Positions 1-51,139 of a stretch of 51,139 bases of DNA are shown here, in pieces; the stretch's first letter is position 1, and every line of letters starts with the position of its first letter. The translations under genes and the position numbers were made by a program. The stretch is taken from the IMG/VR virus record IMGVR_UViG_2744054912_000002; one strand, written 5' to 3'. The notes beneath the pieces were generated by a model. The model was not told where the DNA came from. It saw nothing but the letters and a program-made list of their open reading frames with translations, and made no database searches. The stretch comes from a virus. Lineage: Duplodnaviria; Heunggongvirae; Uroviricota; Caudoviricetes.

Positions 1-182
1 CATTCGTGGGACAGTATCCCTGACAGCCTACAAAACGCAATTGAAGAACGCGAGGCATCGTCTTAACGAGGCACCGAGGCGTCGCATTCTTCAGATGGTT
101 CAACCCTTAAGTTAGCGCTTATGGGAGAGATCCCCGCCACTCTTCGTGTGTCAGGTATCCTCAATGCACCCTTTCCTCTCCA

Positions 183-3780: not shown

Positions 3781-3840
3781 AACTTTCCCTGTTATGCGCC
3801 CCGCACGGGGGCGCTATGTTAAACGGAGAACTTCCCCTGA

Positions 3841-5810: not shown

Positions 5811-5813
5811 GGA

Positions 5814-7987: not shown

Positions 7988-8094
7988 CTCCTTATCATTT
8001 CGTATGAGTGAATTGTACGTTTGATTCTGCTACGTGCAACTTTTTTTGATTCGTGCGTCAATTATTGCATGTAAAGAAATGGCGATGAGGCTAT

Positions 8095-31994: not shown

Positions 31995-32187
31995 ATCCAA
32001 TCAATCACAGGAGCTGAAGATATGAACACGGCATTCTAAATCATTATGACCGCGATCTATTTCTGGCTGTTCTCTATCACTTTTGGCAGCATTGTCGCGC
32101 ATAGGTAAGGGGAGTATATTAGCCATTTGGAACCCCACGGTCTCTTGCGGGTTTAATTAAGAACCCGCAAGAAAAACACGAATTGGG

Positions 32188-35100
32188 CTATATTTTTCCG
32201 CCTACGCCTTTAAACTTCTCAATAAACGAGACGATTTTCTGGAAAACTGCCTGTTTTTTCGTTTTATATTGCGGATTTAACGGACTAAGTTTTGGTAATG
32301 TTTCGTTTAATTCTGTGCCATTTTCGGTGGCATATTCGCGTTTTAAAGACGTGCGAATATAGCGTTTTGCTGCATCTTCATTGAGATTTTCTTCTTTTAT
32401 CAATGCTTCTGCTTCACGTTGCTGTTCGCGTTGAGCAAACGTAAAGAATGCGTCAATGATGCTGGCTTTGTCCGGTAAATCATCCAGGTTCGTTTGCTGA
32501 ATAAAATCGACCACCAGGCCTTCTTTAGCACGGTTCCCCAGGCTTGAACGAATTAAGCGTTTGACCTCTTCGATCATTTCGCCCTTGCCTTTATTTTGTC
32601 TGTTGTGTTCGAAAATCAGTCCAAGGATATAATCCAGGTTTATTTCCTGAGACTTCAGCAAATCGACCTCAAAAACTACGTCATCCCAGTCAGTGGTTGA
32701 TTTCTCTTTTTTCTCAGCTTCTTTCTCACGGCGCTGCCAGTCGCGAATATCGTTATAGGCAGAACGATAATCCTGAATCTTGCGTTCAGCAGGGAGACGA
32801 ATTGTTTGCAATTCAGCGAACTTTTCATCATCCACATAATGTTCTGCTTTGAATTTTTCTACCGCAACAGGATCGCTAAGATCGATTTGTTGCAGGGCTT
32901 TTAGCGTGGCAAATTCATCATAGTTTTGCAGGATGTTCTCGGCACGCAGGTATTCGCCAAACAGTTTAACGAAGTCTTTCTTCTCTTTTTCACTTTCAAT
33001 ACTGGCAGGGTCAGGGAACCGTTGTTCCAGTTCTGAAACTACTGTCATGAAGCCGCGTTTAGCTTCACCAGTGGTAGCATCAGTAAAGCCTTCCATATAC
33101 TCTGCATAACTCTTTTCTAAAACCACATTTTTGGTATTTTTGTCACCAAACAGCGTTATGGCATCAATAGTTGAGCGTTCCAGATCCCGGAAAGTGACGA
33201 TATTACCGAAGGTTTTAGTTGCATCATAAATACGGTTGGTGCGGGAAAATGCCTGCATCAAGCCGTGAAAACGCAGGTTTTTATCGACGAATAGCGTGTT
33301 CAATGTTGGAGCATCGAAGCCGGTTAAAAACATCCCCACGACAATTAACAGATCGATATCCTGATTTTTAACCCGTTGGGCTAAATCACGATAGTAGTTC
33401 TGAAAACCGTTACTGTCGGTGCTGAAGTTAGTTTTAAAATAGCTGTTATACTCACGAATTGCAGCGTCAAGAAACTCTTTAGCACTGCTGTCCATTGCGC
33501 TGGTATCAAAAGTTTCATCGGAAATTTCACCAATGGCATTTTGTTCTTCATTGGCGGCAAAGGAGAAGATTGTCGCAACACGCAGCGATTTATAGGTGGC
33601 CGATTTATTAGCTGCTTCCTCTTGTAACCGTTTAAACGTCGCGTAATAGGCTTTCGCGGCATCCACGCTACTCACTGCCAGCATGGCATTAAAGCCTTTG
33701 GAACCTGGGAAAGTACGGTGGGTCTTCTGGCGGAAGTTATTCAGAATATATTGCGTAATTTCCTGTATACGCATGGGATGAAGAAACGCCTGCTGATTTT
33801 CAGCCGCACTCAGTTTTTTCTCGTCGGTTTCTGTCTCTAAAGACTTAAACTGTGGCCGCACATCGTTATAGTCCACCTTGAATTTGAGCACTTTTTCATC
33901 ACGAATCGCATCGGTAATAACATATGAATGCAATTCACGACCAAATACGCTGGCGGTCGTTTCTGAGCCTAAAGCGTTTTCCGGGAAAATAGGGGTGCCG
34001 GTAAAACCAAACTGATAATAGCGTTTGAATTTCTTCTTCAGGTTTTTCTGCGCTTCTCCAAACTGGCTGCGGTGGCATTCATCAAATATAAACACCACTT
34101 GCTGATTATATACAGGCAGGTCGCTTTCTGCTTTCATCAGGTTATTGAGTTTCTGAATAGTAGTGACGATAATTTTGTTATCGTCCTTATCCAGATTTCG
34201 TTTAAGGCCTGCGGTATTTTCCGAGCCGTTGACGCTGTCTGGCGAAAAACGCTGATATTCCTTCATGGTCTGGTAATCGAGGTCTTTCCTGTCGACCACA
34301 AAGAAGACTTTATCAATAAAGTCCAGCTCTGTTGCCAGACGCGCGGCTTTAAAGCTGGTGAGGGTTTTACCAGAACCGGTAGTATGCCAGATATACCCAC
34401 CGCTTTCCGGTTTTGACCAGTTCTTCGCTGTAAAGGAACTCTTAATTTTCCACAGAATGCGCTCGGTGGCGGCAATCTGGTACGGTCGCATCACCAGTAG
34501 CGTCTGACTACTGTCAAAAACGCTGTAGTTCACCAGAACATTCAGCAGAGTATGTTTCTGGAAAAAGGTAGCGGTAAAGTCTTTGAGGTCTTTAATCAGC
34601 GTGTTGTCTGATTTCGCCCAATTCATGGTGAAGTCAAAACTGTTTTTATCGCGCTTTGTCGTGTTGGCAAAATAACGGGTATCGGTGCCGTTAGAAATGA
34701 CAAACAGTTGCAGATACTTAAACAGGGAATTTTCGCTGTTAAAACTCTCTTTACTGTAACGATGTATCTGGTTGAAAGCCTCACGAATCGCCACCCCGCG
34801 TTTTTTTAGTTCGATTTGCACCAGCGGTAAACCATTAACCAGGATCGTGACGTCATAACGGTTAGCATGAGAACCCGTCTGTTCAAACTGCTGGATAATC
34901 TGCACCTTATTGCGCATGAGATTCTTTTTATCTATCAAATAGATGTTCTCAAGTCGCCCGTCGTCAAAAATAAAGTCGCAGATATAGTCGATATGGATTT
35001 TACGGGTTTTATCCAGAATACCATCGCTGGGGTTGTCCAGATACTGCTCCGTGAAGCGCCGCCACTCGCTGTCATTAAACATCACACCATTGAGGCTCTG

Positions 35101-35304
35101 AAGCTGTTCCCGAACATTAGACAGCATTGCCGACTGTGATTTTACGGAAATAAATTCATAACCCTGATTCCGCAGGTCCTGAATCAGTTCACGTTCCAGG
35201 TCCGATTCGCTCTGGTAGCTGTCGCTTGTTTGCTCAGCTTTGATGTACTTATCAAGGACGATAAAGTTATTGGATTCAGCAATGGTGTGTGTTTGATGAG
35301 TCAT
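32188..35304 (-). CDS. hsdR: Type I restriction enzyme R subunit HsdR (type IC, EcoR124-family)
   Basis: 1038 aa; SF2 helicase motifs (TGSGKT Walker A, DECH box); length equals EcoR124 HsdR as I recall. Confidence 0.95.
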
Positions 35305-35425
35305 AGCGCATCCTTTGTGCCGCCTGGCAAGAGCCGGAAGGGCGTTAAGAGTGACTTCCGGCGCGTAAAAAATAGTCTATATACTGACCGGGTGTTAAGG
35401 TGGCCCGATCGGTAGCAATGGTCAA

Positions 35426-36648
<1,223 letters not shown>

Positions 36649-36652
<4 letters not shown>

Positions 36653-38211
36653 TTTTGCACCTCGCAGCCTTCAATTTCAGCCACAATCGCATCAATATCT
36701 TTACGCAACTGGTCGATTTTGCTAACCGTAGTTTTAAGCTCTGCATTTAGCTCAGCAATATTGATAATTTCGCGGTTATCTTTCGCTTCTACATAGCAGC
36801 TCACCGACAGGTTATAGTCATTAGCGACAACGGTCTCAAACGCGACAGATTTCGCCAGATGAGCAACATCTTCCTTGCTGGCAAATACCTGCATAATCTG
36901 TTCGATATGGGCATCGGTCAGGATATTGTTGTTAGTCTCTTTTTTGAACAGTTCGCTGGCGTCAATAAACTGAACTTTGGTATCCGTTTTATGTTTAGAC
37001 AGCACCAGAATATTTACGGCAATGGTGGTGCCAAAGAACAGGTTCGGTGCCAGTGAAATCACGGTTTCGACATAGTTATTGTCAACCAGATACTGACGGA
37101 TTTTCTGCTCCGCGCCGCCACGGTAAAAAATGCCCGGGAAGCAGACAATCGCAGCACGACCTTTGGCAGAAAGATAGTTCAGCGCATGTAATACAAACGC
37201 AAAGTCAGCTTTGGATTTGGGGGCCAGAACGCCAGCCGGGGCAAAACGTTCATCGTTAATCAGCGTCGGGTCATCGCTGCCAATCCATTTCACCGAATAC
37301 GGCGGGTTAGAAACGATGGCATCAAACGGTTTTTCATCTCTGAAGTGCGGCTCAGTCAGCGTATTGCCCAGCTTGATATCAAACTTGTCGTAGTTGATGT
37401 TGTGCAAAAACATGTTCATACGCGCCAGGTTATAGGTCGTATGGTTGATTTCCTGACCAAAAAAACCTTCTTCGATGATATGGTCATCAAACTGTTTTTT
37501 AGCCTGCAACAACAGCGAACCAGAACCTGCTGCCGGGTCGTAGATTTTGTTAACATGGGTCTGCCCGTGCATAGCCAGTTGTGCAATCAGCTTAGAGACG
37601 TGCTGCGGTGTAAAGAACTCGCCGCCTGACTTACCAGCATTCGCCGCATAGTTAGAAATCAGGAACTCATAGGCATCGCCGAACAGGTCAATCTGATGTT
37701 CGTTAAAGTCGCCAAGCTTTAACCCTTCAACCCCTTTCAGAACCGCAGCCAGGCGGGCATTTTTATCCTTAACGGTGTTACCCAGGCGGTTACTGGTGGT
37801 ATCGAAATCAGCAAACAAACCTTTGATGTCAGCTTCTGAAGGGTAACCGTAAGCAGAACTTTCGATAGCAACGAAGATGCTGTTTAAATCTGCATTTAGT
37901 CTGTCATTGGTATTTGCTTTCGCCGCTACGTTGCAGAAAAGCTGACTGGGGTAGATGAAGTAACCTTTGGTTTTGATGGCATCGTCTTTAATGTCATCAG
38001 TAATTACGCTGTCATCCAGTTTCGCATAACAGATACTGTCATCACCGGCTTCAATATAGCTGGAAAAATTTTCGCTGATAAAACGGTAGAAAAGTGCGCC
38101 CAGAACGTATTGCTTAAAATCCCATCCATCGACCGAACCCCTGACATCGTTAGCAATTTGCCAGATTTGACGATGAAGCTCTGCACGTTGTTGAATACTT
38201 GTCATTTTCAT
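36649..38211 (-). CDS. hsdM: Type I N6-adenine DNA methyltransferase HsdM
   Basis: 520 aa; NPPY motif, AdoMet-binding region; 4-nt overlap with hsdS. Confidence 0.95.
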
Positions 38212-38350
38212 CCACTTATTTCAGGCTTATGTAATTGGATGTGATTCTACAGCAAATTGGATGCTTTAGCAGTTCGGACATTAGGCTACGAATGACCTGC
38301 CTAGAGGTTTGTTAAGCCGCAAAGTGCTGGTGCTTTATGCCTGTGAAGTT

Positions 38351-38379
38351 TATAATTGTGTACACATAACGAGTACACG
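38351..38379 (+). promoter_or_regulatory. phd-doc promoter with palindromic Phd/Doc operator sites
   Basis: TATAAT at 38351-38356 followed by palindromes tgtgtacaca and gagtacac. Confidence 0.65.
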
Positions 38380-38387
38380 AGGTGTTT

Positions 38388-38609
38388 ATGCAATCCATTA
38401 ACTTCCGTACCGCGCGCGGCAACCTTTCTGAAGTGCTCAACAATGTTGAGGCCGGGGAAGAGGTTGAAATCACCCGCAGAGGCCGTGAGCCAGCAGTAAT
38501 TGTCAGCAAGGCTACTTTCGAAGCCTACAAAAAAGCGGCGCTGGATGCTGAATTTGCATCCCTGTTTGACACCCTGGACTCCACCAACAAGGAACTGGTT
38601 AACCGATAA
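38388..38609 (+). CDS. phd: Antitoxin Phd (prevents host death)
   Basis: 73 aa from [39 protein letters not shown], as I recall P1 Phd. Confidence 0.9.
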
Positions 38610-38989
38610 TGAGGCATATATCACCGGAAGAACTTATTGCGCTTCATGATGCGAATATAAGCCGCTACGGCGGCCTGCCGGGAATGTCAGATCCGGGTAG
38701 GGCAGAGGCCATTATCGGGAGAGTTCAGGCCAGAGTTGTCTACGAAGAGATCACCGACCTTTTCGAAGTCTCCGCCACCTACCTGGTGGCTACAGCGAGA
38801 GGGCATATATTCAATGATGCCAATAAGCGTACCGCGCTAAACAGTGCGCTGTTATTTCTACGCCGTAACGGGGTGCAGGTATTTGATTCACCTGAACTGG
38901 CAGACCTTACCGTAGGGGCTGCGACCGGAGAGATATCTGTATCTTCTGTCGCCGACACGTTACGTAGATTGTATGGTTCTGCGGAGTAG
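38609..38989 (+). CDS. doc: Toxin Doc (Fic-fold kinase, death on curing)
   Basis: 126 aa; Fic-like motif [11 protein letters not shown]; start overlaps phd stop. Confidence 0.9.
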
Positions 38990-38993
38990 ATTA

Positions 38994-39173
38994 ATGGCAC
39001 GCAAATACAACAAATTGTCCCGTGAAGCGTTAAAGATGCTTCTTGATGGCGTGAGTCGCCGCAAGGTAAAGCAATACCTGGTTGGTAAGCAAATTGGAGT
39101 CAGGACCGCTATTGCTGTGTTATGCCGTCAGGAAATGGCTGTGCTTAAACAGAGAATGCCGGGCAGCAGATAA
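38994..39173 (+). CDS. Small basic protein downstream of doc (pdcA-like)
   Basis: Start at ATG preceded by GGAG; 59 aa. Confidence 0.45.
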   Translation: MARKYNKLSREALKMLLDGVSRRKVKQYLVGKQIGVRTAIAVLCRQEMAVLKQRMPGSR

Positions 39174-39200
39174 AGCCCAATCAGTGATTAAAGGTGTGAT

Positions 39201-40244
39201 GTGAAAGCCGTAATTACTCCCTTTGTACAGAAAGAGCTTGGCCTCGCCACGTTCAAAGTGGATCAGGAGGTCAGAAAGCTGGTGGAGGCTGGCCGTAAAT
39301 TTATTATGGAGCCGGTGCCGCGTGAGTTAATCGAGCACATGGAAGACGGCCTCGTTGTTACCGAGCAAACCATGGCAACAAATGAGGCGTTGCAGCCGTT
39401 TTTTAACAGCGATGAACTGTTTCGCCGTATTGGTGGAATTGACGCGCTGGTGGCGTGGTTGCGCAGGAAAGAGGGGCAATGCCAGGCCGCAGATCGTAGC
39501 TGGTGTGACAACCATATTGTCCACGCAGAACGAGACAATAGCGCGGTGTTGTTGTGCTGGCATCACGATAACCATTACCGGATGCGTGGTTTTAATGAGC
39601 TGAAAGAAACGCTGCATAATAATCGCGTTAACTGGATACTGGATGTCGCCCGTCAGGAAATGGGGCTTTCAGATGGCCATGATCTAAGTATTCAGGAACT
39701 GTGCTGGTGGGCTTTCATGCGCAACATGATGCACCTGATGCCGGAAGAAGTTTGCCGTATATCAATAAATAAGATGAAAGCCGCAACGCAGGATAGCGGA
39801 CCTCTGAAAGAGGCGGATATTCGCCCGTATGACGATCGCGCTACAGCATATGTTCAGATGATGGAAGAACGCGCCGCGCCGATGCGTGCAAAAGTATGCC
39901 CTGTGGATGTTGACTCCGACCCTGGCATGGCGCATTTCAAAATACCAAAACTGCAATCGCTAAAATTACCTGAGTACATGGACTTTGTTGCTTCCCGTCC
40001 ATGCTGTGGGTGTGGAGCGGCGGGAGCTGGCGCTCACATTACGCCTTATATCGTTCGTCATAGTCGATTATGCGCGCATGACATTTACGCAATTCCTCTG
40101 TGCCAGTCATGCCAGCGTGATATTGAGCGTGACCGCGATAATTGGGAGAAGACGCACGGTAGGCTGGCGATGCATCAACGATTGTTCTTTGATTACGCGC
40201 TTGGAGTCGGCGCTATCACAAGTCACTCGTCGAGCGTTATATAA
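39201..40244 (+). CDS. Cys-rich hypothetical protein (pdcB-like)
   Basis: 347 aa, GTG start; multiple Cys/His clusters. Confidence 0.55.
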
Positions 40245-40245
40245 A

Positions 40246-40262
40246 ATTGCTCTAATGTATTG
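40246..40262 (+). promoter_or_regulatory. C1 operator-like site upstream of lpa
   Basis: ATTGCTCTAATGTATTG. Confidence 0.6.
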
Positions 40263-40332
40263 CTATTTCTTTAATCGATGGTATTATATTCCACGTTGAT
40301 TAGTTGACATGGGCTAATCAGTAGGTGACAGG

Positions 40333-40785
40333 ATGTTACTTAACTGGCAGGGACGCCACTTCATGGAAATAAATCACTCACGAATAACATCGTACGAGAT
40401 TGCGGATTACATGATCCGCACTAAATCTCTTCTATCAGCGAAAGAACTCGCAGCAATTCTTGAAAAGGAATACCCGCATCTGGATGTCGATAAGCGCGAT
40501 GTTTATCTGCGCTTAAAGGCTATCGCTGTGTCTAAGTATTCGTCTGTTTTGATTGATGACAGTACACGCCCACGTAGATTTCAGATCCACTCTCTGAATC
40601 CTGAATTCTTTCGCCGTAGCCGCGCTCCGCGCCGGTTTGATGAAAAACTCCAGAACGAACTCTATATGACGCAGGACGAAAAGGAACGCCGGGAGCACCA
40701 GCCTTGGGTAATGGCGCGTCAACTTTTCAATAAGGTGGCCCGTCAGCACCGTCATTACGGTAATGCCACATCCGCACGTATCTGA
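40333..40785 (+). CDS. lpa: Late promoter activator Lpa-like protein
   Basis: 150-aa basic protein directly upstream of pacA with C1 operator in its promoter; AGGTGA RBS. Confidence 0.6.
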   Translation: MLLNWQGRHFMEINHSRITSYEIADYMIRTKSLLSAKELAAILEKEYPHLDVDKRDVYLRLKAIAVSKYSSVLIDDSTRPRRFQIHSLNPEFFRRSRAPRRFDEKLQNELYMTQDEKERREHQPWVMARQLFNKVARQHRHYGNATSARI

Positions 40786-40870
40786 TTGATTGCTTGCCCG
40801 TTCCGGGCCTTTTGACATGTGACTTTCGTTACCCTCGCGTCAAAAAGAGTTTTTACGAAAGGAAGCATAA

Positions 40871-42064
40871 GTGACCTGGGACGATCACAAGAAGAATTTT
40901 GCTCGCCTGGCGCGAGATGGTGGTTACACCATCGCACAGTATGCCGCCGAGTTTAATCTTAACCCTAATACCGCACGTCGTTATCTCCGTGCCTTCAAAG
41001 AAGACACCAGGACTGCGGACAGCCGCAAGCCAAATAAGCCAGTCAGGAAGCCACTAAAAAGCATGATCATTGATCACTCTAATGATCAACATGCAGGTGA
41101 TCATATTGCGGCTGAAATAGCGGAAAAACAGAGAGTTAATGCCGTTGTCAGTGCTGCAGTCGAGAATGCGAAGCGCCAAAATAAGCGCATAAATGATCGT
41201 TCAGATGATCATGACGTGATCACCCGCGCCCACCGGACCTTACGTGATCGCCTGGAACGCGACACCCTGGATGATGATGGTGAACGCTTTGAATTCGAAG
41301 CTGGCGATTACCTGATAGATAACGTTGAAGCGCGGAAGGCCGCGCGCGCTATGTTGCGTCGGTCCGGGGCCGATGTTCTGGAAACCACTCTTCTTGAAAA
41401 GTCTCTTTCTCACCTCCTTATGCTGGAGAACGCCAGGGATACGTGTATTCGCCTGGTGCAGGAAATGCGCGATCAGCAAAAAGGCGATGATGAAGGTACT
41501 CCGCCTGAATACCGTATCGCGAGCATGCTAAACAGCTGTTCCGCGCAGATAAGCAGCCTGATCAACACCATTTACAGCATCCGGAATAACTATCGAAAAG
41601 AAAGCCGGGAGGCGGAAAAGCACGCTTTGTCTATGGGGCAAGCTGGCATTGTTAAGCTGGCATACGAACGAAAGCGTGAAAATAACTGGTCAGTGCTGGA
41701 AGCTGCTGAATTCATCGAGGCGCATGGCGGGAAAGTGCCGCCCCTGATGCTGGAGCAAATCAAAGCCGATCTGCGTGCTCCTAAGACCAATACCGATGAT
41801 GAGGAAAGGCAAACAGCCGTCGGTGGCCCTTCTCTTGAAGATCTGGACAAAGTTGCGCGAGAACGGGCCGCCAACCGCCGCGCCGATGCCGCATTGTGGA
41901 TTGAGCAGCGTAGGGAAGAAATCGCCGATATCGTTGATACAGGCGGTTATGGAGATGTTGATACTGAAGGTGTATCAAACGACCCATGGCTGGAACAAGA
42001 CCTGGACGAAGACGAGGAGGAAGACGAAGAAGTTACCCGCAAGCTATACGGGGATGATGATTAA
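40871..42064 (+). CDS. pacA: Packaging endonuclease small subunit PacA
   Basis: 397 aa; contains the pac hexamer clusters within its 5' coding region. Confidence 0.85.
41062..41224. other. pac: pac packaging site: two clusters of TGATCA/GATC hexamers (4 + 3)
   Basis: GATC hexamers at about 41064, 41071, 41083, 41098 and 41193, 41205, 41217. Confidence 0.75.
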
Positions 42065-43548
42065 TGGCCAGAAGTTGCGTAACGGATCCACGTTGGCGCG
42101 AGCTGGTGGCGCTATATCGTTATGACTGGATTGCGGCCGCTGATGTTTTGTTCGGCAAAACACCTACCTGGCAGCAGGATCTGATTATTGAGTCTGTGCA
42201 GGAACAGGGTAGCAAGACATCTGTTTCGTCTGGTCACGGTACCGGGAAATCAGACATGACTTCTATCATGATCATGTTGTTCATAATCATGTATCCCGGT
42301 GCCCGCGCCATTATCGTTGCGAACAAAATTCAGCAGGTAATGACCGGTATATTCAAGTACATCAAGATAAACTGGGCTACTGCCACCAGCCGTTTTCCAT
42401 GGCTTGCTGATTATTTTGTTCTGACAGAAACCGCTTTCTATGAGGTTACTGGTAAAGGTGTATGGACTGTAGTACCGAAGGGCTTTCGTCTGGGAAGTGA
42501 AGAAGCTCTCGCCGGTGAACACGCAGACCATCTTCTGTATATTATCGATGAAGCCTCCGGTGTCAGTGATAGAGCTTTCGGTATCATCACCGGTGCTCTT
42601 ACCGGACAGGATAACCGCATCTTATTGCTGTCACAGCCTACACGCCCAAGCGGCTATTTCTACGATACACACCATAAACTGGCCAAGCGTCCTGGTAACC
42701 CAGATGGCGTTTATACGGCGATCACGCTTAACAGTGAGGAATCACCGCTGGTAACGCCAGAATTTATCAAAATGAAGCTGGCGGAGTACGGCGGGCGTGA
42801 TAACCCTATGTACATGATTAAGGTACGCGGCCTATTCCCTAAATCACAGGACGGCTTCCTTCTTGGACGTGATGAGGTTGAACGTGCGACGCGGCGGAAA
42901 GTCAAGATTGCCAAAGGATGGGGCTGGCTTGCATGTGTGGACGTTGCTGGTGGTACAGGACGGGATAAGTCCGTTATCAATATCATGATGGTGTCCGGCC
43001 AGCGAAATAAACGCCGTGTAATCAACTATCGAATGCTGGAATACACAGACGTTACAGAAACGCAGCTTGCCGCCAAAATTTTCGCAGAATGTAATCCTGA
43101 GCGATTCCCAAACATCACCATAGCGATAGACGGCGATGGGCTGGGTAAAGCAACGGCGGATCTGATGTACGAGTATTATGGTATTACCGTACAGCGCATA
43201 CGCTGGGGTAAAAAGATGCATAGCCGTGAAGATAAGAGCCTGTACTTTGATAAACGTGCTTATGCCAACGTTCAAGCCGCAGAGGCCGTAAAATCTGGTC
43301 GTATGAGACTGGATAAGGGTAATGAAACTATTGAGGAAGCGTCGAAAATCCCTGTAGGGATTAACTCCGCGGGTCAATGGAAAGTGATGAGTAAGGAGGA
43401 TATGAAGAAAAAACTCAACCTGCACTCACCAGACCATTGGGATACATATTGTTTCGCTATGCTGGCGGATTATGTTCCCCAGGATGAAGTGCTTAGCGTC
43501 GAAGACGAAGCGCAGGTTGATGAAGCTCTGGCATGGCTTAATGAATGA
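42064..43548 (+). CDS. pacB: Terminase large subunit PacB
   Basis: 494 aa; ATPase/nuclease terminase-like; ATGA overlap with pacA. Confidence 0.85.
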
Positions 43549-43550
43549 AT

Positions 43551-43567
43551 ACTTGCTCTAATAAATT
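43551..43567 (+). promoter_or_regulatory. C1 operator-like site after pacB
   Basis: ACTTGCTCTAATAAATT (one mismatch to consensus). Confidence 0.55.
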
Positions 43568-43700
43568 GTGTTTTTTAACTGCCGATGTTACATTGAGCCT
43601 GACCTCTTGCGCCTTGAGGCATTTTCGGTTTATGCTTATCAGGCACCTCAGTAAAACGGGTGCCGGGATTGAGACCCCGGATAATGCAAAAGGCGACACA

Positions 43701-43722
43701 GACGCCAAAAGCGTCTTTTTTT
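43701..43722 (+). terminator. Rho-independent terminator
   Basis: gacgc-caaaa-gcgtc followed by T7. Confidence 0.6.
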
Positions 43723-43744
43723 GTGTCATGCCATCGCACAGCCA

Positions 43745-43880
43745 TACGTAGCGTTTAGCTCAGAGATCAATGGTAGTGCTGGCTGGGCTGCCGAAAGGCA
43801 GGCCGGTTCCCTTTTGCGCCGGTAGTCTCAACCCAGTCAGTGCTACCGCCATTGAGATTGAGACCTCACGCGGTAGCTCC
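43745..43880 (+). ncRNA. Structured leader / candidate c4-like antisense regulatory RNA
   Basis: Long imperfect closing stem (43765-43782 with 43823-43844), GAAA-tetraloop hairpin (43788-43801), second hairpin (43803-43822) whose loop is complementary to the downstream RBS. Confidence 0.4.
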
Positions 43881-43907
43881 TTAAATTAGCAAAAGGAGGC
43901 TGCCATT

Positions 43908-44129
43908 GTGGCTACTATCCCTACCCCTGCTCATCCTGAATTTATCTGGCGCTTTTACTCCTGCCAAAAACGTCACTATCACTTCGTTATTGCACCGACA
44001 GAAGATGAGGCACGTTCTCAGCTTCCGGATGCTCCCTGTATTTTCTCTGCCCGCTTTTCTACCGATTCGCGCAATTCTCTCAGTTACTGGTGCCTCCCTG
44101 TTAACGCTTCTGCTCAGGAGGGACTATGA
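43908..44129 (+). CDS. Small protein translationally coupled to the antirepressor (icd-like, 73 aa)
   Basis: AAAGGAGG RBS; stop TGA overlaps the ATG of the next gene (ATGA); my hand count of the start codon was off by 1 nt, so I follow the ORF track. Confidence 0.5.
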   Translation: MATIPTPAHPEFIWRFYSCQKRHYHFVIAPTEDEARSQLPDAPCIFSARFSTDSRNSLSYWCLPVNASAQEGL

Positions 44130-45238
44130 GAACGTCATTAGTCACCCGTGAAGAGATGATCGAGGCAATTGAACAGCACACTGCCTGTATCAGTACCAGG
44201 GATATACCGGGCGTTATTGCCAACTACTTCATGATCACCAAACAACTTTACCGGAGAAAGGACAAACACGCGGTTCACCGCATTCTGCTAACCGATATCC
44301 GTGAATACCTGCTCGAACAGGGTCATCTGAATTACGCAACCGTCGCAGCCGAAGCACGCAAGGAGGCACACAGAATGAAAGCAACTAACGTTAAATCAGA
44401 AAAAATTTATGCACCTTCAGTTCAGGAATCGGAACTGGTGGTTGTTCAGAATCAGCCGGATGAAATTCCCGTTCTGGAATGGCAGGGAGTACGTGTCGTG
44501 ACAACCGAAACTCTTGCTAGAGGGTATGGTGTCGATGAAGCCAATATTCGCAACAATTTGTCTCGCAACCTTGACCGCTTTGAAGAAGGTAAGCATTACT
44601 TTCTTCTAACTGGTTTAAAATTAAGAGAATTTAAGAACAGAGTAACCGGAAGTTACTCTGTTGGTAAGAACGCCAGAAGCCTTACACTCTGGACAGAGCG
44701 CGGCGCTGCACGCATGTCTAAGATCGTGGACACAAATGAAGCATGGGCATTCTTTGAAAAACTGGAAGACAGCTACTTCCGGCAAAAAGAACAGCAACCG
44801 GTTGCAATCCCCCAGACGCTTCCAGAAGCTCTGCGCCTGGCTGCCGAACTGGCTGAACAAAAGCAGCTTCTGGAACAGAAAGCCCACCAGCTAAATCAGC
44901 AGCTGGTGGCCGCCGCTCCTAAAGTCGATTTTGCCGACCGGGTATCAGTAGCTAAAGGGATCCTGATTGGGAATTTTGCAAAGGTTGTTGGACTTAAGCA
45001 AAACGCGCTGTTTGCCTGGTTACGGGAGAACGGCATCCTGATAGCGTCCGGTGGACGTAAAAATGTGCCGTTCCAGCAGTACATCAATGCGGGGTATTTC
45101 ACGGTGAAAGAAGTGGTGCTGGATGATGAAGATGGCTACCAGATACGGTTGACGCCTCAATTAACGGGTAAAGGCCAGCAGTGGTTGACGCGTAAACTGC
45201 TCGATGCTGGCTTGTTAAAACCGGTGGCGGCTGAATAA
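44126..45238 (+). CDS. Antirepressor-like protein (ORF6N-like N-terminal domain plus KilA-C/AntA-like C-terminal domain)
   Basis: 370 aa; ...VRVVTTETLARGYGVDEANIRNNLSRNLDRFEEGKHYFLL... and C-terminal ...PFQQYINAGYFTVKEV... Confidence 0.7.
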   Translation: MRTSLVTREEMIEAIEQHTACISTRDIPGVIANYFMITKQLYRRKDKHAVHRILLTDIREYLLEQGHLNYATVAAEARKEAHRMKATNVKSEKIYAPSVQESELVVVQNQPDEIPVLEWQGVRVVTTETLARGYGVDEANIRNNLSRNLDRFEEGKHYFLLTGLKLREFKNRVTGSYSVGKNARSLTLWTERGAARMSKIVDTNEAWAFFEKLEDSYFRQKEQQPVAIPQTLPEALRLAAELAEQKQLLEQKAHQLNQQLVAAAPKVDFADRVSVAKGILIGNFAKVVGLKQNALFAWLRENGILIASGGRKNVPFQQYINAGYFTVKEVVLDDEDGYQIRLTPQLTGKGQQWLTRKLLDAGLLKPVAAE

Positions 45239-45270
45239 TGGAAGAATGCCCGGTTGATGCCGGGCATAAT

Positions 45271-46122
45271 TTATTGCGCGCTTTCGGGGTTGTCGTTTAC
45301 TGGCTGCCCCTTCTTGGTTTTACGGCTGCGCGTAACTGATGCGCCTGACTTAACCTTTTTCTCTTCGCGAGTGATGGCAATTTGTTTTTTTACATTTTCA
45401 ATATCTGCCAGGCGATATATTTTTGCTTGCGGCCAGCGGTCGCAGATGATCGGTTCTATGGAGTCATAAAGGCTAAATTTTGCTTTTTCGAATTCACCGT
45501 TGATGATAATTCCATCACGGAGAGTTTCATCGCAGATAAACACGCCACACAGTGGCACATGGTAACTAACTGATTTACCATCATTGTAGTTAGGGCTACT
45601 GGAAATGTAGTGGACGCGCAGCATTGTTTCGCTAAAGCCGTGTACGCGCATACGGAATTTTTCATCCTCCGGGTACTGCCTCATTAGCTCTTTTGTTGCT
45701 TCCAGGTTCTCTATGTATTTCGCACTGTGCTCATTGAGCCCCGCGCTTTTTTGGATGCGAATGTCCTTATCAATCAGATGAATAATGCGGCCAGCGGTCA
45801 TGTTGACGCTGTTCACAGCTTCTGTCTGATAAGTTGTAACCTTACGTACACCGCGAAGGATGTTAGGCACTGGATATAAAATAGTCTTTGGGATATTGAG
45901 GTCTGGGTACTGTTCCAGTTCCCGCGCCATTAAAGTCCATTTATCAATTTCAGCCTGAATGCTGTCAGTTTCTTTGAACGGTAGAACGACAACCGGGCGT
46001 ACAGGACGACCGTCGCTGGCTGTATCAACGTGTTGGGCGCGTGCAACAGCTTTTTTTAGAAAGAGATCCCTGAAGCTGACGAACTCCTGGTACAGTTGTT
46101 CGCCGTAGACATAATTTATCAT
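45271..46122 (-). CDS. c1: Primary lysogeny repressor C1
   Basis: 283 aa, matching P1 C1 length; preceded by coi, with operator-like sites upstream. Confidence 0.9.
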   Translation of the reverse strand: MINYVYGEQLYQEFVSFRDLFLKKAVARAQHVDTASDGRPVRPVVVLPFKETDSIQAEIDKWTLMARELEQYPDLNIPKTILYPVPNILRGVRKVTTYQTEAVNSVNMTAGRIIHLIDKDIRIQKSAGLNEHSAKYIENLEATKELMRQYPEDEKFRMRVHGFSETMLRVHYISSSPNYNDGKSVSYHVPLCGVFICDETLRDGIIINGEFEKAKFSLYDSIEPIICDRWPQAKIYRLADIENVKKQIAITREEKKVKSGASVTRSRKTKKGQPVNDNPESAQ

Positions 46123-46232
46123 TGATCCTCCTCCAGAATTGACATGGTCAATAACGCCCGGCTGAGAAAACCGGTCATTACTGACCTATATTATAGAGGG
46201 ATCAAACAAAAATAATAGATTTATTAGTGCAT

Positions 46233-46442
46233 TTATTGTGAGTCTAACTGGTTAGTTGCCATGAGATATTCGATTGTGTCAGTGAGGTCATCCAGGTCGT
46301 CTTGGGTGATGCGGTACTCCTGATTGGATATCTTTGAGTAGTGTTCAGCAATGGCGCGGGCAGCGTCGGTTTCGGCAGGGTCTACAGATAAAGCGTTAGA
46401 GCAATGTCTAACGTCGTCGATGGTTGGTTGAATGAAAGCCAT
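46233..46442 (-). CDS. coi: C1 inactivator Coi
   Basis: 69-aa ORF immediately upstream of c1 in the same orientation. Confidence 0.7.
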   Translation of the reverse strand: MAFIQPTIDDVRHCSNALSVDPAETDAARAIAEHYSKISNQEYRITQDDLDDLTDTIEYLMATNQLDSQ

Positions 46443-46681
46443 AATTATGCCTCACTGTATTGACAACACAGAGCCTGAAGCTCTGACCTACTGTTTCACC
46501 CATGATCCATGCTGGGGTAATCTAACAACATTGCGCTGTGTGTAAGATGAGCAATGCATAGCTGTAATGCCGTTGTATAAGGTTTCCCTGTTTGCCCATT
46601 TCCTTCTGAGCCGCTCTACAACGCTGAAGACACATTAAATAGTGAATCCAAAGTCGTATTACGTAACGGCGGCAAAACTAT

Positions 46682-46698
46682 AATTTATTAGAGCAATT
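46682..46698 (-). promoter_or_regulatory. C1 operator-like site (immC region)
   Basis: Reverse complement of aatttattagagcaat is ATTGCTCTAATAAATT. Confidence 0.65.
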
Positions 46699-46763
46699 GT
46701 CAAACAACTATGAAAAACAATCCAGTTTTTGGCTGGTGGAGTGGGATTTTTCTCTCAAAATTT

Positions 46764-46780
46764 ATTGCTCTAATAATTCT
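46764..46780 (+). promoter_or_regulatory. C1 operator-like site (immC region)
   Basis: ATTGCTCTAATAATTCT. Confidence 0.65.
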
Positions 46781-46823
46781 TGATTTTTATGCGCAACTGG
46801 ACGTAAACTCCTCTTCAGACCTA

Positions 46824-46857
46824 ATAACTTCGTATAGCATACATTATACGAAGTTAT
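46824..46857 (+). other. loxP: loxP site-specific recombination site
   Basis: Exact 34-bp ATAACTTCGTATA-GCATACAT-TATACGAAGTTAT. Confidence 0.97.
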
Positions 46858-47046
46858 CTTAAGGGTTATTGAACATGATCAATTTACCTGTAAATCCATA
46901 CAGTTCAATACCTTATCAGGTCAAATAGTGATCACTTGATCATTTGATCAAGGTTGCGCTACGTAAAATCTGCGAAATGTTGGCAGTGTTAGTGCTCCAG
47001 ATTTCGCGTAGCGCACTTAGCACCACCAATCAATCAGAGGTGAAAA

Positions 47047-47268
47047 ATGGGATATTCAGCTGCTAAAGTGTCCACTCATATTGAGCTTGAGAAAAACCGT
47101 GGTTACTGGCGGGCAAAAGGGTTTGATCGTGATAGTTGTCAACTGTCATTATCGCGCGGTGAAGAGAAAATAGAACGCACGCGCGGTCGCTGGCGTTTCT
47201 ATGACGAGAACCATAAACAGGTAAAGGCAGAGCCGATCCTGTACACTTTACTTAAAACCATTATCTGA
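47047..47268 (+). CDS. Small basic hypothetical ORF in the cre leader
   Basis: 73 aa; strong SD AGAGGTG 5 nt before ATG; stop 8 nt before cre start; could also be non-coding leader. Confidence 0.35.
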   Translation: MGYSAAKVSTHIELEKNRGYWRAKGFDRDSCQLSLSRGEEKIERTRGRWRFYDENHKQVKAEPILYTLLKTII

Positions 47269-47275
47269 GTGTTAA

Positions 47276-48307
47276 ATGTCCAATTTACTGACCGTACACC
47301 AAAATTTGCCTGCATTACCGGTCGATGCAACGAGTGATGAGGTTCGCAAGAACCTGATGGACATGTTCAGGGATCGCCAGGCGTTTTCTGAGCATACCTG
47401 GAAAATGCTTCTGTCCGTTTGCCGGTCGTGGGCGGCATGGTGCAAGTTGAATAACCGGAAATGGTTTCCCGCAGAACCTGAAGATGTTCGCGATTATCTT
47501 CTATATCTTCAGGCGCGCGGTCTGGCAGTAAAAACTATCCAGCAACATTTGGGCCAGCTAAACATGCTTCATCGTCGGTCCGGGCTGCCACGACCAAGTG
47601 ACAGCAATGCTGTTTCACTGGTTATGCGGCGGATCCGAAAAGAAAACGTTGATGCCGGTGAACGTGCAAAACAGGCTCTAGCGTTCGAACGCACTGATTT
47701 CGACCAGGTTCGTTCACTCATGGAAAATAGCGATCGCTGCCAGGATATACGTAATCTGGCATTTCTGGGGATTGCTTATAACACCCTGTTACGTATAGCC
47801 GAAATTTCCAGGATCAGGGTTAAAGATATCTCACGTACTGACGGTGGGAGAATGTTAATCCATATTGGCAGGACGAAAACGCTGGTTAGCACCGCTGGTG
47901 TAGAGAAGGCACTTAGCCTGGGGGTAACTAAACTGGTTGAGCGATGGATTTCTGTCTCTGGTGTAGCTGATGATCCGAATAACTACCTGTTTTGCCGCGT
48001 CAGAAAAAATGGTGTTGCCGCGCCATCATCCACCAGCCAGCTATCAACTCGCGCCCTGGAAGGGATTTTTGAAGCAACTCACCGATTGATTTACGGGGCA
48101 AAAGATGACTCTGGTCAGCGATACCTGGCCTGGTCTGGACATAGTGCCCGTGTCGGTGCTGCGCGAGATATGGCCCGCGCCGGAGTTTCTATACCGGAGA
48201 TCATGCAAGCTGGCGGCTGGACCAACGTAAATATTGTCATGAACTACATTCGTAACCTGGATAGTGAAACGGGGGCAATGGTGCGCCTGCTGGAAGATGG
48301 CGATTAG
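47276..48307 (+). CDS. cre: Cre tyrosine recombinase
   Basis: 343 aa, MSNLLTVHQNLPALPVDATSDEVRKNLMDMFRDRQAFSEHTWKMLL...; catalytic tyrosine region at C-terminus; 436 nt from loxP centre. Confidence 0.98.
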   Translation: MSNLLTVHQNLPALPVDATSDEVRKNLMDMFRDRQAFSEHTWKMLLSVCRSWAAWCKLNNRKWFPAEPEDVRDYLLYLQARGLAVKTIQQHLGQLNMLHRRSGLPRPSDSNAVSLVMRRIRKENVDAGERAKQALAFERTDFDQVRSLMENSDRCQDIRNLAFLGIAYNTLLRIAEISRIRVKDISRTDGGRMLIHIGRTKTLVSTAGVEKALSLGVTKLVERWISVSGVADDPNNYLFCRVRKNGVAAPSSTSQLSTRALEGIFEATHRLIYGAKDDSGQRYLAWSGHSARVGAARDMARAGVSIPEIMQAGGWTNVNIVMNYIRNLDSETGAMVRLLEDGD

Positions 48308-48324
48308 CCGTTCATTTGCTCTTG

Positions 48325-48341
48325 ATTGCTCTAATTATTTA
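48325..48341 (+). promoter_or_regulatory. C1 operator-like site downstream of cre
   Basis: ATTGCTCTAATTATTTA. Confidence 0.6.
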
Positions 48342-48357
48342 ATATTTATGGTGACAC

Positions 48358-48669
48358 ATGCGGAAGGATTTCAAAATAGACGGAAAATATGTGGTGCTGT
48401 CTGTAAGCTCTCAAATTCAGTCACCATCTGTCATTGTCACCGTAAAGTTGAGCGATAGGATGCCTGATATCGACTCGATATCTGTTGCGTTCCCCGTTAA
48501 AAGCATGCGGAGTGCTGAACATTTTGTGATGAATGCAACGGAGGAGGAAGCGCGGCGCGGGCTTACTAGAGTGATGGGGGAATTTGGCGAACTCCTGGGT
48601 AAGGTAAACAATGCCCTTTCAATCAGTTCAGCAAGGTCCAAAGCGTTAACAGCTTCCATGATGAAATAA
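48358..48669 (+). CDS. Hypothetical protein (cra-like by position)
   Basis: 103-aa ORF between cre and ref. Confidence 0.5.
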   Translation: MRKDFKIDGKYVVLSVSSQIQSPSVIVTVKLSDRMPDIDSISVAFPVKSMRSAEHFVMNATEEEARRGLTRVMGEFGELLGKVNNALSISSARSKALTASMMK

Positions 48670-48802
48670 AAAAAAGCCTGGCAAGGAGCCAGGCTGCACA
48701 AAAGAGCGGGTTTGTATTCCGCATCCAATCAATCAAGAAGGAGTATAGCACACAGGTACTGAAGTGAAAAAATGTGATTCGCGATAAACAAAATATCTAC
48801 CA

Positions 48803-48819
48803 TTGCTCTAATTGATTGC
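48803..48819 (+). promoter_or_regulatory. C1 operator-like site(s) overlapping the ref promoter
   Basis: ATTGCTCTAATTGATTG with overlapping second half-site and TATAAT at 48821-48826. Confidence 0.6.
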
Positions 48820-48885
48820 TATAATTTAGCCGCAGTTTTTGTCAACTACGAAGACGTTGCCATTACTTCACTCCTTGACATCATT

Positions 48886-48911
48886 GGCGGCCATTAGGCC
48901 GCCTTTTTTTT
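48886..48911 (+). terminator. Hairpin plus T8 immediately upstream of the ref start codon
   Basis: ggcggcc-atta-ggccgcc followed by tttttttt, 5 nt before ATG. Confidence 0.55.
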
Positions 48912-48916
48912 GCCAT

Positions 48917-49366
48917 ATGAAAACAATCGAACAAAAACTTGAACAGCGCCGCGAGTGGCAGAAGGCAGCCAGAGAACGAGCGATCGCTCGGCAACAGGAA
49001 AAGTTGGCTGACCCCGCCTGGCGAGAATCGCAATATCAGAAAATGCGGGATTCTATCGACCGCCGTATCGCTAAACAGAAAGAGCGCCCACCAGCCAGCA
49101 AAACGCGGAAAAGTGCGGTAAAGATAAAATCTCGTGGCTTGAAGGGGCGAACACCGACAGCGGAGGAACGGAGCATCGCCAATGCTCTTGGCGCTCTCCC
49201 CTGCATTGCCTGCTACATGCATGGAGTAATATCAGAAGAGGTATCTCTGCACCATATCTCCGGTCGTACCGCGCCGGGTTGTCACAAAAAGCAATTGCCC
49301 CTTTGTAGATGGGGGAACCGCAGAATTCGGAAAAAATCGTACGCTAAGCTAACGGTGTTCTCGTGA
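48917..49366 (+). CDS. ref: Recombination enhancement function Ref (HNH-family), apparently 3'-altered/truncated
   Basis: MKTIEQKLEQRREWQKAARERAIARQ...CIACYMHGVI...HKKQLPLCRW then unrelated tail; about 149 aa versus about 186 aa recalled for P1 Ref. Confidence 0.7.
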   Translation: MKTIEQKLEQRREWQKAARERAIARQQEKLADPAWRESQYQKMRDSIDRRIAKQKERPPASKTRKSAVKIKSRGLKGRTPTAEERSIANALGALPCIACYMHGVISEEVSLHHISGRTAPGCHKKQLPLCRWGNRRIRKKSYAKLTVFS

Positions 49367-49444
49367 CAGCTCTTTGACTAGGCTTTCTAAGGCCATTCTG
49401 ATAGCCCTGACTTCCTGAAAAGCCATGGCTAAAATTTGTGCGGC

Positions 49445-49480
49445 TAAAAGGGATAACCGATGGTAAAGTAAGTTATCCCT
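49445..49480 (-). terminator. Terminator-like hairpin downstream of the Aer-like gene
   Basis: agggataac / gttatccct 9-bp inverted repeat with T-rich tract on the - strand. Confidence 0.45.
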
Positions 49481-49499
49481 GTCGAGATACTGAAAAGCG

Positions 49500-51012
49500 T
49501 TATCCTCGTTTTTCCCAAAACTGTTTTGCCAGTTCGCTCAGAGCGCTAGTTAACTGAGCGACAGATTTCGCACTTTGCAAATTATTCTGCCCGGTCTGTA
49601 CATTGGTATCAGCAGCATCGCGTATATTGATAATACTGCGGTTTATGTCTTCACTTACTGCTCCCTGCTGCTCGACCGCAGTCGCTATTTGCGCGTTCAT
49701 GTCGGTAATTTCGTTAACGCGTTGGCCAATTCCATCAAGAGCTGTAGCTGCTTCCTCTGCGTGAGCTACACTCGTGTGCGCTTGCCGACTACTTTGCTCC
49801 ATGACTGTAACAGCGGATTGCGCTCGCTCTTGTAGAGCGCTGATCATGCTTTGAATATCCGTTGTCGATTGCTGTGTGCGAGCAGCAAGACTGCGAACCT
49901 CATCGGCGACAACAGCAAAACCACGCCCCTGCTCACCAGCACGCGCGGCCTCAATTGCTGCGTTGAGTGCCAACAAATTCGTTTGCTCGGCGATCCCTCG
50001 TATAACGTCAAGAACTTTTGATATCTCGTTACTTTGACCTTCAAGCTCATGAATAACCTGAGTGGCTTGCCTAATTTCACCTTCAAGGGCAGTGATTGAC
50101 TGGCTTGTGTGGGCTACCAGACGCTGGCCAGATGCCGTCTCAGTGTCTGCTCTTCCGGCCGCATCTGCAGCATGCTGTGCATTGCTCGCAACCTCTTGAA
50201 TGCTTGCCACCATTTGGTTTACTGCCGTTGCTATTTGATCTGTCTCTGCCTGCTGCTCAACTGTAAGTACATTGCTTGACTCAATATCCTTTAGTAGGCC
50301 TCGGGTGTGTTCGCTAAGCCGATTTGATGCATCACCTATGCGACCTACTATGGCGCCTGTTTCAGCTTGCATCATTCGTAAAGCAAACTCTATTTGGCCA
50401 AACTCATCGGTGCGCCCAGTGTAGAGGGATTGACTTAATGGGTTATTGGAAATATTCCTGGCTCTTTCAACCAGTCTTCCAAGAGGAGAGAGAATAGCCA
50501 AAACACTAACAGAGCTTAAGCTTCCTGACATTAAAGTGGCTAACAATAAGCTGCTTATTGATGTATCAGTAAGCATGCCGGCAGCCATTGCGCTTGATAT
50601 AATACTACCCCATATGAGCAAGAGTATTTTCACGGAAAAGCTAGCAGCCAATTTCGGCCTCGCGGCCTTCCCGCTTCTCAATTGAGCATATAATTTTTCC
50701 GCAGCCAAAACCTGCTCAGGTTCAGGCTTGGTCCTTACAGACTGGTATTCAACAATCGAACCATTCTTAGCTATTGGCGTTACATAAGCACTTACCCAAT
50801 AGTGGTCGCCATTTTTACAGCGATTTTTTACTAGCCCCATCCATGAGCGGCCAGATTTTAATGTACTCCACATATGCTCAAATGCAGCAGGCGGCATATC
50901 TGGGTGTCTTACGATGTTGTGAGGCTGGCCTAATAGTTCTTCCTCAGTGAAACCACTGATTTTAATGAAGTCAGGATTAACGTACGTGATATGGCTTTGA
51001 GGGGAGGTAGTC
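49500..51012 (-). CDS. PAS-domain methyl-accepting chemotaxis protein (Aer-like aerotaxis receptor), 5'-truncated by IS26
   Basis: PAS region [21 protein letters not shown]...NGDHYWV; MCP signalling domain [30 protein letters not shown]; the track start codon (GTG) lies inside the IS26 inverted repeat. Confidence 0.75.
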
Positions 51013-51139
51013 GGCACTGTTGCAAATAGTCGGTGGTGATAAACTTATCATCCCCTTTTGCTGATGGAGCTGCACATGAACCCATTCAAAGGCCGGCATT
51101 TTCAGCGTGACATCATTCTGTGGGCCGTACGCTGGTACT
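51013..51139 (+). mobile_element. IS26 (IS6 family) left end: terminal inverted repeat and start of transposase gene; element continues beyond the window
   Basis: GGCACTGTTGCAAA terminal repeat at 51013-51026; downstream sequence matches my memory of IS26. Confidence 0.9.
51077..51139 (+). CDS. tnpA: IS26 transposase Tnp26, N-terminal 21 codons (partial)
   Basis: MNPFKGRHFQRDIILWAVRWY. Confidence 0.9.

Follow-up and report, generated by a model that had tools for sequence, protein, structure and literature searches.

Organization of the interrupted ref locus

Near its right end, the window (the whole stretch of 51,139 nucleotides analysed here) carries the regulatory region and 5' part of a P1-like ref gene, a 38-bp terminal inverted repeat (IR) of the Tn1721/Tn1722 type, a chemoreceptor-like mcp gene on the opposite strand and the left end of IS26. 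The coordinates of these features are collected in Table 1. From position 46841 on, the window and the beginning of the P1 genome (lox, cra, cre, c8 and ref) are collinear at ~95% nucleotide identity, and the segment 47000–49312 corresponds to P1 160–2472 with 95.5% nucleotide identity. The match to P1 ceases at 49312, and more than 100 P1-like plasmids align with the window only up to this base. A sequence shared with thousands of unrelated plasmids starts at 49311. The true junction is 49310|49311; the GG at 49311–49312 belongs to the transposon IR, and its match to P1 is coincidental.

Table 1. Features at the ref locus of the window. The position of the junction, the IR, and the identities of mcp and IS26 were read directly from the window.
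Feature	Position	Strand	Remark
ref regulatory region: P2ref, C1 operator Oref (48802–48818), P1ref	48797–48884	+	alignment to P1 annotation
5' ref, codons 1–131 and first base of codon 132	48917–49310	+	N-terminal DNA-binding region and first half of HNH nuclease domain
Hybrid ORF, Ref'(1–132) plus 17 residues GNRRIRKKSYAKLTVFS	48917–49366	+	149 aa
TAGAT, left copy of 5-bp target site (P1 nt 2466–2470; ref codons 130–132)	49306–49310	.	right copy read in two sibling plasmids
38-bp terminal IR of Tn1721/Tn1722 (TnAs1-type, Tn3-family), mcp-proximal end, GGGGGAACCGCAGAATTCGGAAAAAATCGTACGCTAAG	49311–49348	+	
Noncoding transposon interior, IR to mcp stop codon	49349–49499	.	100% identical in Tn1721-bearing plasmids
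Tn1721 orfI/mcp, chemoreceptor-like passenger, without first 22 codons and promoter	49500–51012	−	reads toward IR and ref
IS26 left end: 14-bp IR GGCACTGTTGCAAA (51013–51026), tnp26 start ATG at 51076 (MNPFKGRHFQRDIILWAVRWY...)	51013–51139	+	exact IR match

The hybrid ref ORF is terminated by a TGA codon at 49364–49366. Residues 1–132 align without gaps to residues 1–132 of P1 Ref with 92% identity and end in ...HKKQLPLCRW. P1 Ref is 186 aa in length, and the identity to the P1 family breaks at codon 132 of 186. The 17 foreign codons that follow are read from the transposon end. A preliminary description of this DNA had followed the ORF through the same motif to a stop at about 149 aa, gave a length of about 186 aa for P1 Ref and placed a breakpoint near 49310 that removed the Ref C-terminus. 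All of this was borne out when the window Ref was aligned with P1 Ref and the loss of P1 identity was mapped. The window Ref is not full length, departs at residue 132 and lacks residues 133–186, and the loss of identity, apparent at 49312 and true at 49310, is followed by sequence that is not P1 backbone. The tail, given as 18 residues in that description, is indeed unrelated to Ref and comprises 17.

The Pfam profile PF16786 is matched by the window Ref over positions 1–57 of 103, versus 1–102 for P1 Ref, and the nuclease domain is incomplete. The active-site, Zn-coordinating residues His134 and His153 (numbered from the P1/3PLW sequence) are missing since the ORF departs after residue 132. 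Previously, the active site of Ref was described as three Zn-coordinating histidines, and the His153Ala and His134/153Ala variants were found to have no nuclease activity (PMC4713147). Because both His134 and His153 are missing, the Ref remnant should have no RecA-dependent nuclease activity. The basic, unstructured N-terminal 76 residues are present and conserved in the alignment to P1 Ref; this segment is needed for DNA binding and, when expressed alone, still induces SOS (PMC4330346, PMC4713147).

The regulatory region upstream of ref was located with the P1 annotation (P2ref 1957–1985, Oref 1962–1978 and P1ref 2017–2044; window position = P1 position + 46840). Window 48760–48930 is 99% identical to P1 1920–2090, with 2 mismatches in 171, and a scan of the window gave a promoter-like match at 48857–48884. 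Judged from these alignments, Ref' keeps its C1-controlled promoter and its N-terminal DNA-binding segment. Once C1 repression is lifted, the prophage would be expected to produce a Ref' without nuclease activity, possibly still able to bind DNA. Thermal-induction lysis profiles are identical for ref+ and ref-deletion phage, which makes ref dispensable for lytic growth (PMC4713147), and an insertion in ref should therefore be tolerated.

The IR in the window reads GGGG...TAAG (GGGG...ACGCTAAG) and is identical at 35 of 38 positions to the opposite IR, GGGGAGCCCGCAG... (GGGGAGCCCGCAGAATTCGGAAAAAATCGTACGCTAAG). The opposite IR, GGGGAGCCCGCAGAATTCGGAAAAAATCGTACGCTAAG, was published as the Tn1721 IR (PMC7864471). 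For the 30-nt core of the IR, 0 chance matches are expected from shuffled sequences. The sequence from 49311 on is present at 99–100% identity in more than 5000 plasmid records from many genera; among the matches listed, the alignments start at 49301–49311, mostly exactly at 49311. An 8-bp inverted repeat, GGGATAAC (49450–49457) and GTTATCCC (49472–49479), lies in the noncoding interior with a TTTT stretch after it on the minus strand. This hairpin could serve as the terminator of mcp; its 14-nt loop kept it from being called by the consensus terminator scan.

The 505-aa ORF at 49500–51017 on the minus strand contains the Pfam domains PAS_3, HAMP and MCPsignal. The GTG start of this ORF is fortuitous and falls within the IR of IS26. 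The P1-like element SJ46 shows the native N-terminus, MRQNLPVTGRNLELPKDANILS..., and comparison with it indicates that the first 22 mcp codons have been removed at IS26 in the window. The gene was named mcp of Tn1721 in the description of SJ46 (PMC5241659). A convergent chemoreceptor gene had been noted downstream of ref in place of the expected mat-res-mod genes; the gene and its position are correct, and it is the mcp gene of Tn1721 rather than a substitute for the backbone.

The IS26 portion of the window is 100% identical to the annotated IS26 copies of the plasmids pDETEC37 and pCRST032_1, and the window stops inside the element. The window is bounded by repeats on either side, with an IS421/IS186-type end at 1–~123 and IS26 from 51013 on. 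The 38-bp IR is present as a single copy: a second IR was searched for in the window and was not found. The remaining 3' end of ref and mat were likewise found nowhere in the window, and tnpA, tnpR and res are not present within it.

Complete plasmids with the same junction

Two closed Escherichia coli plasmids, pDETEC37 (NZ_CP116153.1) and pCRST032_1 (NZ_AP045803.1), carry an identical ref|IR junction. The two siblings are independent of each other and come from China and Ecuador. pDETEC37 is 100% identical to the window over 47000–51139 and 99.9% identical over 46557–51139, and the IS26|mcp junction is also identical; it differs from the window in being heavily IS1-riddled and in extra cargo between coi and cra. 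pCRST032_1 is 99.2% identical to the window over 38312–50758 and differs from it in an IS26 inserted in mcp at the window-equivalent position 50758, in the opposite orientation. By segment, the backbone is a mosaic relative to the siblings, with identities of 96.7–99.9%. No closed record among complete E. coli genomes matches the whole window. Public assemblies with this junction number at least 23. At least 21 public draft contigs encode the identical 149-aa fusion, and, like the window, nearly all of them end within mcp or IS26.

The far side of the insertion was read directly in both siblings, where the second IR is followed by TAGAT+GGCACCACC... (TAGATGGCACCACC..., equal to P1 from nt 2466 onward), by the remaining ref codons and by an intact mat. 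The pentamer TAGAT thus flanks the IR pair on both sides in pDETEC37 and pCRST032_1 as a perfect 5-bp target duplication, in keeping with transposition by a Tn3-family element; of this duplication the window shows the left copy only. The IR-to-IR span, counted inclusively, is 30,615 bp in pDETEC37 and 40,221 bp in pCRST032_1 (30.6 or 40.2 kb). A full-length Tn3-family tnpA of the TnAs1/Tn1721 type adjoins the far IR of pCRST032_1. The DNA between the IRs of the siblings is a typical IS26-structured multiresistance region with mph(A), a class 1 integron with sul1, qnrB6, aac(6')-Ib-cr, oqxAB and strAB, among others. In pDETEC37, the quinolone-resistance cargo of this region consists of qnrB6, aac(6')-Ib-cr and oqxAB.

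The genes that lie beyond mat in relatives of the window bear on the fate of the type III restriction–modification genes. In pCDF6_3, a full 186-aa ref is followed by mat, a RelA/SpoT-domain gene and lxc-ulx-darB, and no res-mod is present. The arrangement in SJ46 is as in pCDF6_3, with mat followed by the RelA/SpoT gene. A DUF2971 gene occupies the res-mod position of pDETEC37 and pCRST032_1, a GNAT gene is found between mat and lxc in pB27_2, and HTH and EAL genes are found there in pPS2C_136kb. The EcoP1I type III res and mod genes are missing in these relatives whether ref is intact or interrupted, and mat is retained. The loss of res-mod is independent of the state of ref, and the mat–lxc interval is therefore an independently variable cargo slot. 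Since a relative with an intact ref is also without res-mod, the absence of these genes is unrelated to the junction in the window. A type I hsdRSM system is encoded at 32113–38311 of the window, in a region without a P1 match; it was assigned by identity to annotated genes of pDETEC37.

Origin of the junction

The junction is best explained as a Tn1721/Tn1722-type transposon that inserted in ref at TAGAT and was later remodelled by IS26, and not as a replacement of the backbone; we give this reading a probability of about 0.94. Elements of the Tn3 family undergo replicative transposition via TnpA, followed by resolution by TnpR. A replicative transposon of the Tn1721/Tn1722 type (TnAs1 family, Tn3 family) would have entered ref of a P1-like phage-plasmid at TAGAT. 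This event would have set up the order at the left junction, namely 5' ref, TAGAT, the 38-bp IR, a short noncoding stretch and mcp reading back toward ref. We infer that the original event was a TnpA-mediated transposition. With TAGAT on both sides in the siblings and with the 3' end of ref and mat kept, nothing was deleted when the junction was formed, and ~30–40 kb was inserted.

A later copy of IS26 would have landed in mcp, or deleted up to codon 22 of it, as part of the usual IS26-driven build-up of multiresistance inside the transposon. In the draft contig L028, this ref junction stands next to an intact, full-length 525-aa mcp, and IS26 cuts mcp at differing points among the relatives; the truncation by IS26 is therefore later than the insertion of the transposon. 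Beyond the resistance region, the genome from which the window derives probably also keeps the 3' end of ref and mat, as the siblings do. Extrapolation from the siblings places a second transposon end and the right target duplication there, and the far side would read ...CTTAGCGTACGATTTTTTCCGAATTCTGCGGGCTCCCC|TAGATGGCACC... and continue into the 3' part of ref and mat.

Alternatively, homologous recombination between P1-like plasmids in one cell could have brought in the allele already interrupted, with the transposition of Tn1721 itself having occurred elsewhere. The window matches pDETEC37 with an identity of 99.9% near the junction (46557–51139) versus 96.7–97.9% in other shared segments, as such an import would leave it. 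Recombination in the flanks would also give the outcome reported for P1-CTX, a same-site insertion in a second P1 prophage (PMC11117986). We regard this history as possible, at somewhat less than even odds; it is compatible with the identification of the junction as a Tn1721-type insertion.

The preliminary description had proposed that the type III restriction–modification region was replaced, with the junction as the boundary. In such an event a segment of the canonical backbone (the Ref C-terminus, mat, res and mod) would have been deleted, with foreign DNA in its stead from 49310 on. The window indeed lacks the remainder of ref as well as mat, res and mod, it stops inside IS26 and leaves the far side of this genome outside the view, and IS26, a cause of adjacent deletions, is only 1.7 kb away. 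However, the boundary coincides with the exact outer base of a transposon IR, which neither an IS26-mediated nor a recombinational deletion would give, and both complete siblings retain the IR, TAGAT, the 3' end of ref and mat. Moreover, res-mod is also missing in relatives with an intact ref, so the loss of these genes is a separate matter. A replacement is very improbable, and this part of the earlier account is abandoned. An assembly chimera of a P1-like and a Tn1721-bearing contig, which the repeats at both window ends (suggestive of short-read assembly) might invite, can be dismissed almost entirely, given the identical junction in two independent closed plasmids and at least 21 independent draft contigs and the matching target duplication at the other transposon end.

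The insertion at TAGAT followed by IS26 remodelling would represent a route by which a P1-like phage-plasmid acquires a resistance island, with a Tn1721-type transposon as the beachhead. The knock-out of the Ref nuclease would be a side effect of this acquisition. The 149-aa "Ref" should be annotated as a fusion remnant and the "chemoreceptor" as cargo of the transposon, not as a chemotaxis gene of the phage or of the host. The shared junction is useful for tracking a circulating lineage.

Tn1721-type insertions in ref and mat of P1-like plasmids

Tn1721-type IRs were found in other P1-like plasmids at at least 12 distinct positions, in 14 position–orientation combinations, within ~740 bp of ref–mat; the junction searches joined pieces ≤700 bp apart and detected insertions only within ~700 bp of the ref probe. 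With the mcp end toward ref, the last backbone base is P1 2398, 2470, 2616, 2834, 2900, 3012 or 3116. With the tnpA end toward ref, it is P1 2397, 2470, 2502, 2535, 2900, 3032 or 3034. The duplicated pentamers are AT-rich and the flanking positions are G/C-rich. A claim that ref–mat is a hot spot within the P1 genome as a whole was dropped, as the survey reached only ~700 bp around ref.

The pentamers TAGAT (P1 2470) and AATAA (P1 2900) are occupied in both orientations, and in pPS2C_136kb the TAGAT duplication is present with the element flipped. An in-place inversion by recombination within the IRs was considered for the opposite-orientation TAGAT copies (pPS2C_136kb and pB27_2) and was rejected, since the swap extends to the outer IR bases that are specific to each end (GGGGGAACC versus GGGGAGCCC). 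Both orientations at TAGAT are explained by separate insertions into a preferred AT-rich pentamer. The duplicated pentamers fit the target preference of Tn1721 cited in PMC11117986, and independent re-use of a site is therefore unsurprising. Approximately 178 of the 800 regional pentamers contain at least 4 A/T among 5 bases, so two coincidences among 14 events are not remarkable.

Ref increases the killing of P1 lysogens by ciprofloxacin. It is conceivable, although on the whole unlikely, that ref–mat is a preferred landing zone for Tn1721-type elements and that insertions inactivating Ref are positively selected. If this selection were real, ref knock-outs would be favoured in quinolone-exposed hosts, and the siblings carry their quinolone-resistance cargo at the ref site.

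The window Ref was compared with P1 Ref, a RecA-dependent HNH endonuclease (PDB 3PLW). The two are alike in residues 1–132 (92%), in the promoter and in the C1 operator, and they differ in that residues 133–186, including His134 and His153, are gone from the window Ref and 17 unrelated residues stand in their place. The element in the window, read together with its copies in the siblings, shares with Tn1721/Tn1722 (Tn21 subgroup of the Tn3 family; labelled "TnAs1 family" by PGAP) the 38-bp IRs, a 5-bp AT-rich target duplication, and the placement of mcp (orfI) beside one IR and tnpA beside the other. In contrast to Tn1721/Tn1722, only the mcp end is kept in the window, and the element survives as the outer frame of a resistance island remodelled by IS26 rather than as a discrete transposon.

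The closest precedent is Tn1721-blaCTX-M-27 at the ref/mat locus of the P1-like SJ46/P1-CTX, with direct repeats of TATGA or TATGAA (PMC5241659, PMC11117986). In a study of P1-CTX from 2024, transduction was followed by the appearance of this Tn1721-blaCTX-M-27 insertion in another P1 prophage, again at that ref/mat site (PMC11117986). The junction of SJ46 was re-read here at P1 2616, in agreement with the published account and 146 bp downstream of the site in the window. The window and SJ46/P1-CTX share the type of transposon, the sequence of the mcp-end IR, its orientation to ref, the backbone family and a hit in ref, and in both mcp was secondarily disrupted by other mobile elements. SJ46 was hit 21 bp before the ref stop codon (P1 2616; target duplication TATGA/TATGAA) and retains an almost full-length Ref, whereas the hit in the window at P1 2470 (target duplication TAGAT) costs 54 residues, the catalytic histidines among them. 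The cargo of SJ46 is ISEcp1-blaCTX-M-27, versus the IS26-bounded multiresistance arrays of the window's siblings, and SJ46 carries tnpR and tnpA. The structure at the ref locus is ordinary and already precedented and involves no new mechanism; the allele of the window resembles that of SJ46 in kind and is a separate insertion.

Tn1721-Type Insertions in ref and mat

A Tn1721-type element occupies the TAGAT pentamer of ref in plasmid pPS2C_136kb in the orientation opposite to that of the window. The 5' part of ref adjoins the tnpA-end inverted repeat (IR), and the 3' part adjoins the mcp-end IR and a copy of TAGAT. The same left junction is present in plasmid pB27_2. APEC_AN-25 matches 400 nt of the pPS2C-type junction in one piece and probably shares it. 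Inversion of the element in place was considered for pPS2C_136kb and pB27_2 and was rejected because the end-specific bases of the IRs are swapped. The elements of opposite orientation at TAGAT are therefore independent insertions. The coordinates of these and the other features are collected in the table below.

Coordinates of features in the window and in retrieved related sequences (L-numbers)
Feature	Sequence	Coordinates
TAGAT pentamer in ref	window	49306-49310
Opposite-orientation element at TAGAT	L008	9196-9238
	L014 (pPS2C_136kb)	about 31905-31950
Left junction of pB27_2	L009	9196-9238
ref pieces of pB27_2	L013	13540-13934
	L009	8807-9202
mcp and IS26-mcp contact	window	51013
	L007	about 21648
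	L028 (draft contig, intact mcp)	3055-4632
mat-lxc comparison loci	L004	9261-11040
	L010	10519-12268
	L015	8151-10026
	L002	23106-24981
	L013 (pB27_2)	14060-15508
	L014	29205-31550
IS421/IS186-type terminus	window	1-125
Gap at parS-parB-parA position	window	5718-8093
Gap between hrdC and dmt	window	13254-14273
Type I restriction-modification module	window	32113-38311
Stretch of this module not matching pDETEC37	window	about 35582-36598
pacB-c1 module	window	43547-45271
ant1-like part of pacB-c1 module	window	44888-45222

Across the ref-mat region of P1-like plasmids, Tn1721-type IRs were located at 12 distinct positions, in 14 position-orientation combinations, within about 740 bp (P1 coordinates 2397-3116). 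Detection was confined to at most 700 bp from ref, and the count thus carries no information on enrichment relative to the rest of the genome. The mapping drew on the related sequences L002, L016-L021, and L029-L034. The second site occupied in both orientations is the AATAA pentamer at P1 2900. The pentamers duplicated at the insertions are AT-rich, and their flanks are G/C-rich.

Rearrangements after Insertion

Plasmid pB27_2 retains the 5' part of ref up to P1 2470 and a 3' piece beginning at P1 2306, which overlap by 165 bp. The mcp-end IR does not adjoin the 3' piece, and the far side of the insertion has therefore been rearranged. Among carriers of the ref junction found in the window, both the point of contact between IS26 and mcp and the orientation of IS26 vary, and draft contig L028 keeps an intact mcp of 525 amino acids. 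This indicates a single transposon insertion followed by repeated, independent IS26 events.

The window begins inside the terminal region (about 123 bp) of an IS421/IS186-type insertion sequence, a segment with 100% identity to the DNA beside annotated IS421 copies in pDETEC37. Since its opposite end lies in IS26, the window resembles a contig whose two ends were both set by repeats.

Comparison with P1 and Its Relatives

In the P1 family, the cargo carried between mat and lxc varies. P1 itself has the EcoP1I res-mod genes there, whereas SJ46 and pCDF6_3 share a RelA/SpoT-domain gene, and pDETEC37 and pCRST032_1 share a gene of the DUF2971 type. The interval is occupied by a GNAT gene in pB27_2 and by HTH and EAL genes in pPS2C_136kb.

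Apart from the two modules described next, the window has two further gaps in nucleotide similarity to P1. The one at the parS-parB-parA position may perhaps hold a partition system of another type than that of P1; the one between hrdC and dmt spans about 1 kb. The type I restriction-modification module has no nucleotide match to P1 and aligns to the annotated hsdR, hsdS, and hsdM genes of pDETEC37 (97.9% and 96.7%). The nonmatching stretch within it covers the 3' end of hsdR and the hsdR-hsdS junction (pDETEC37 coordinates). This module is flanked by pap and phd-doc, at the position taken up in P1 by the genes from pmgT to humD. An extra module between pacB and c1 is absent from P1 at that position; part of it is 86% identical to P1 ant1. 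The matching genes of pCRST032_1 and draft contigs, an antirepressor set beside c1, carry the annotations ash, icd-like, and ant.
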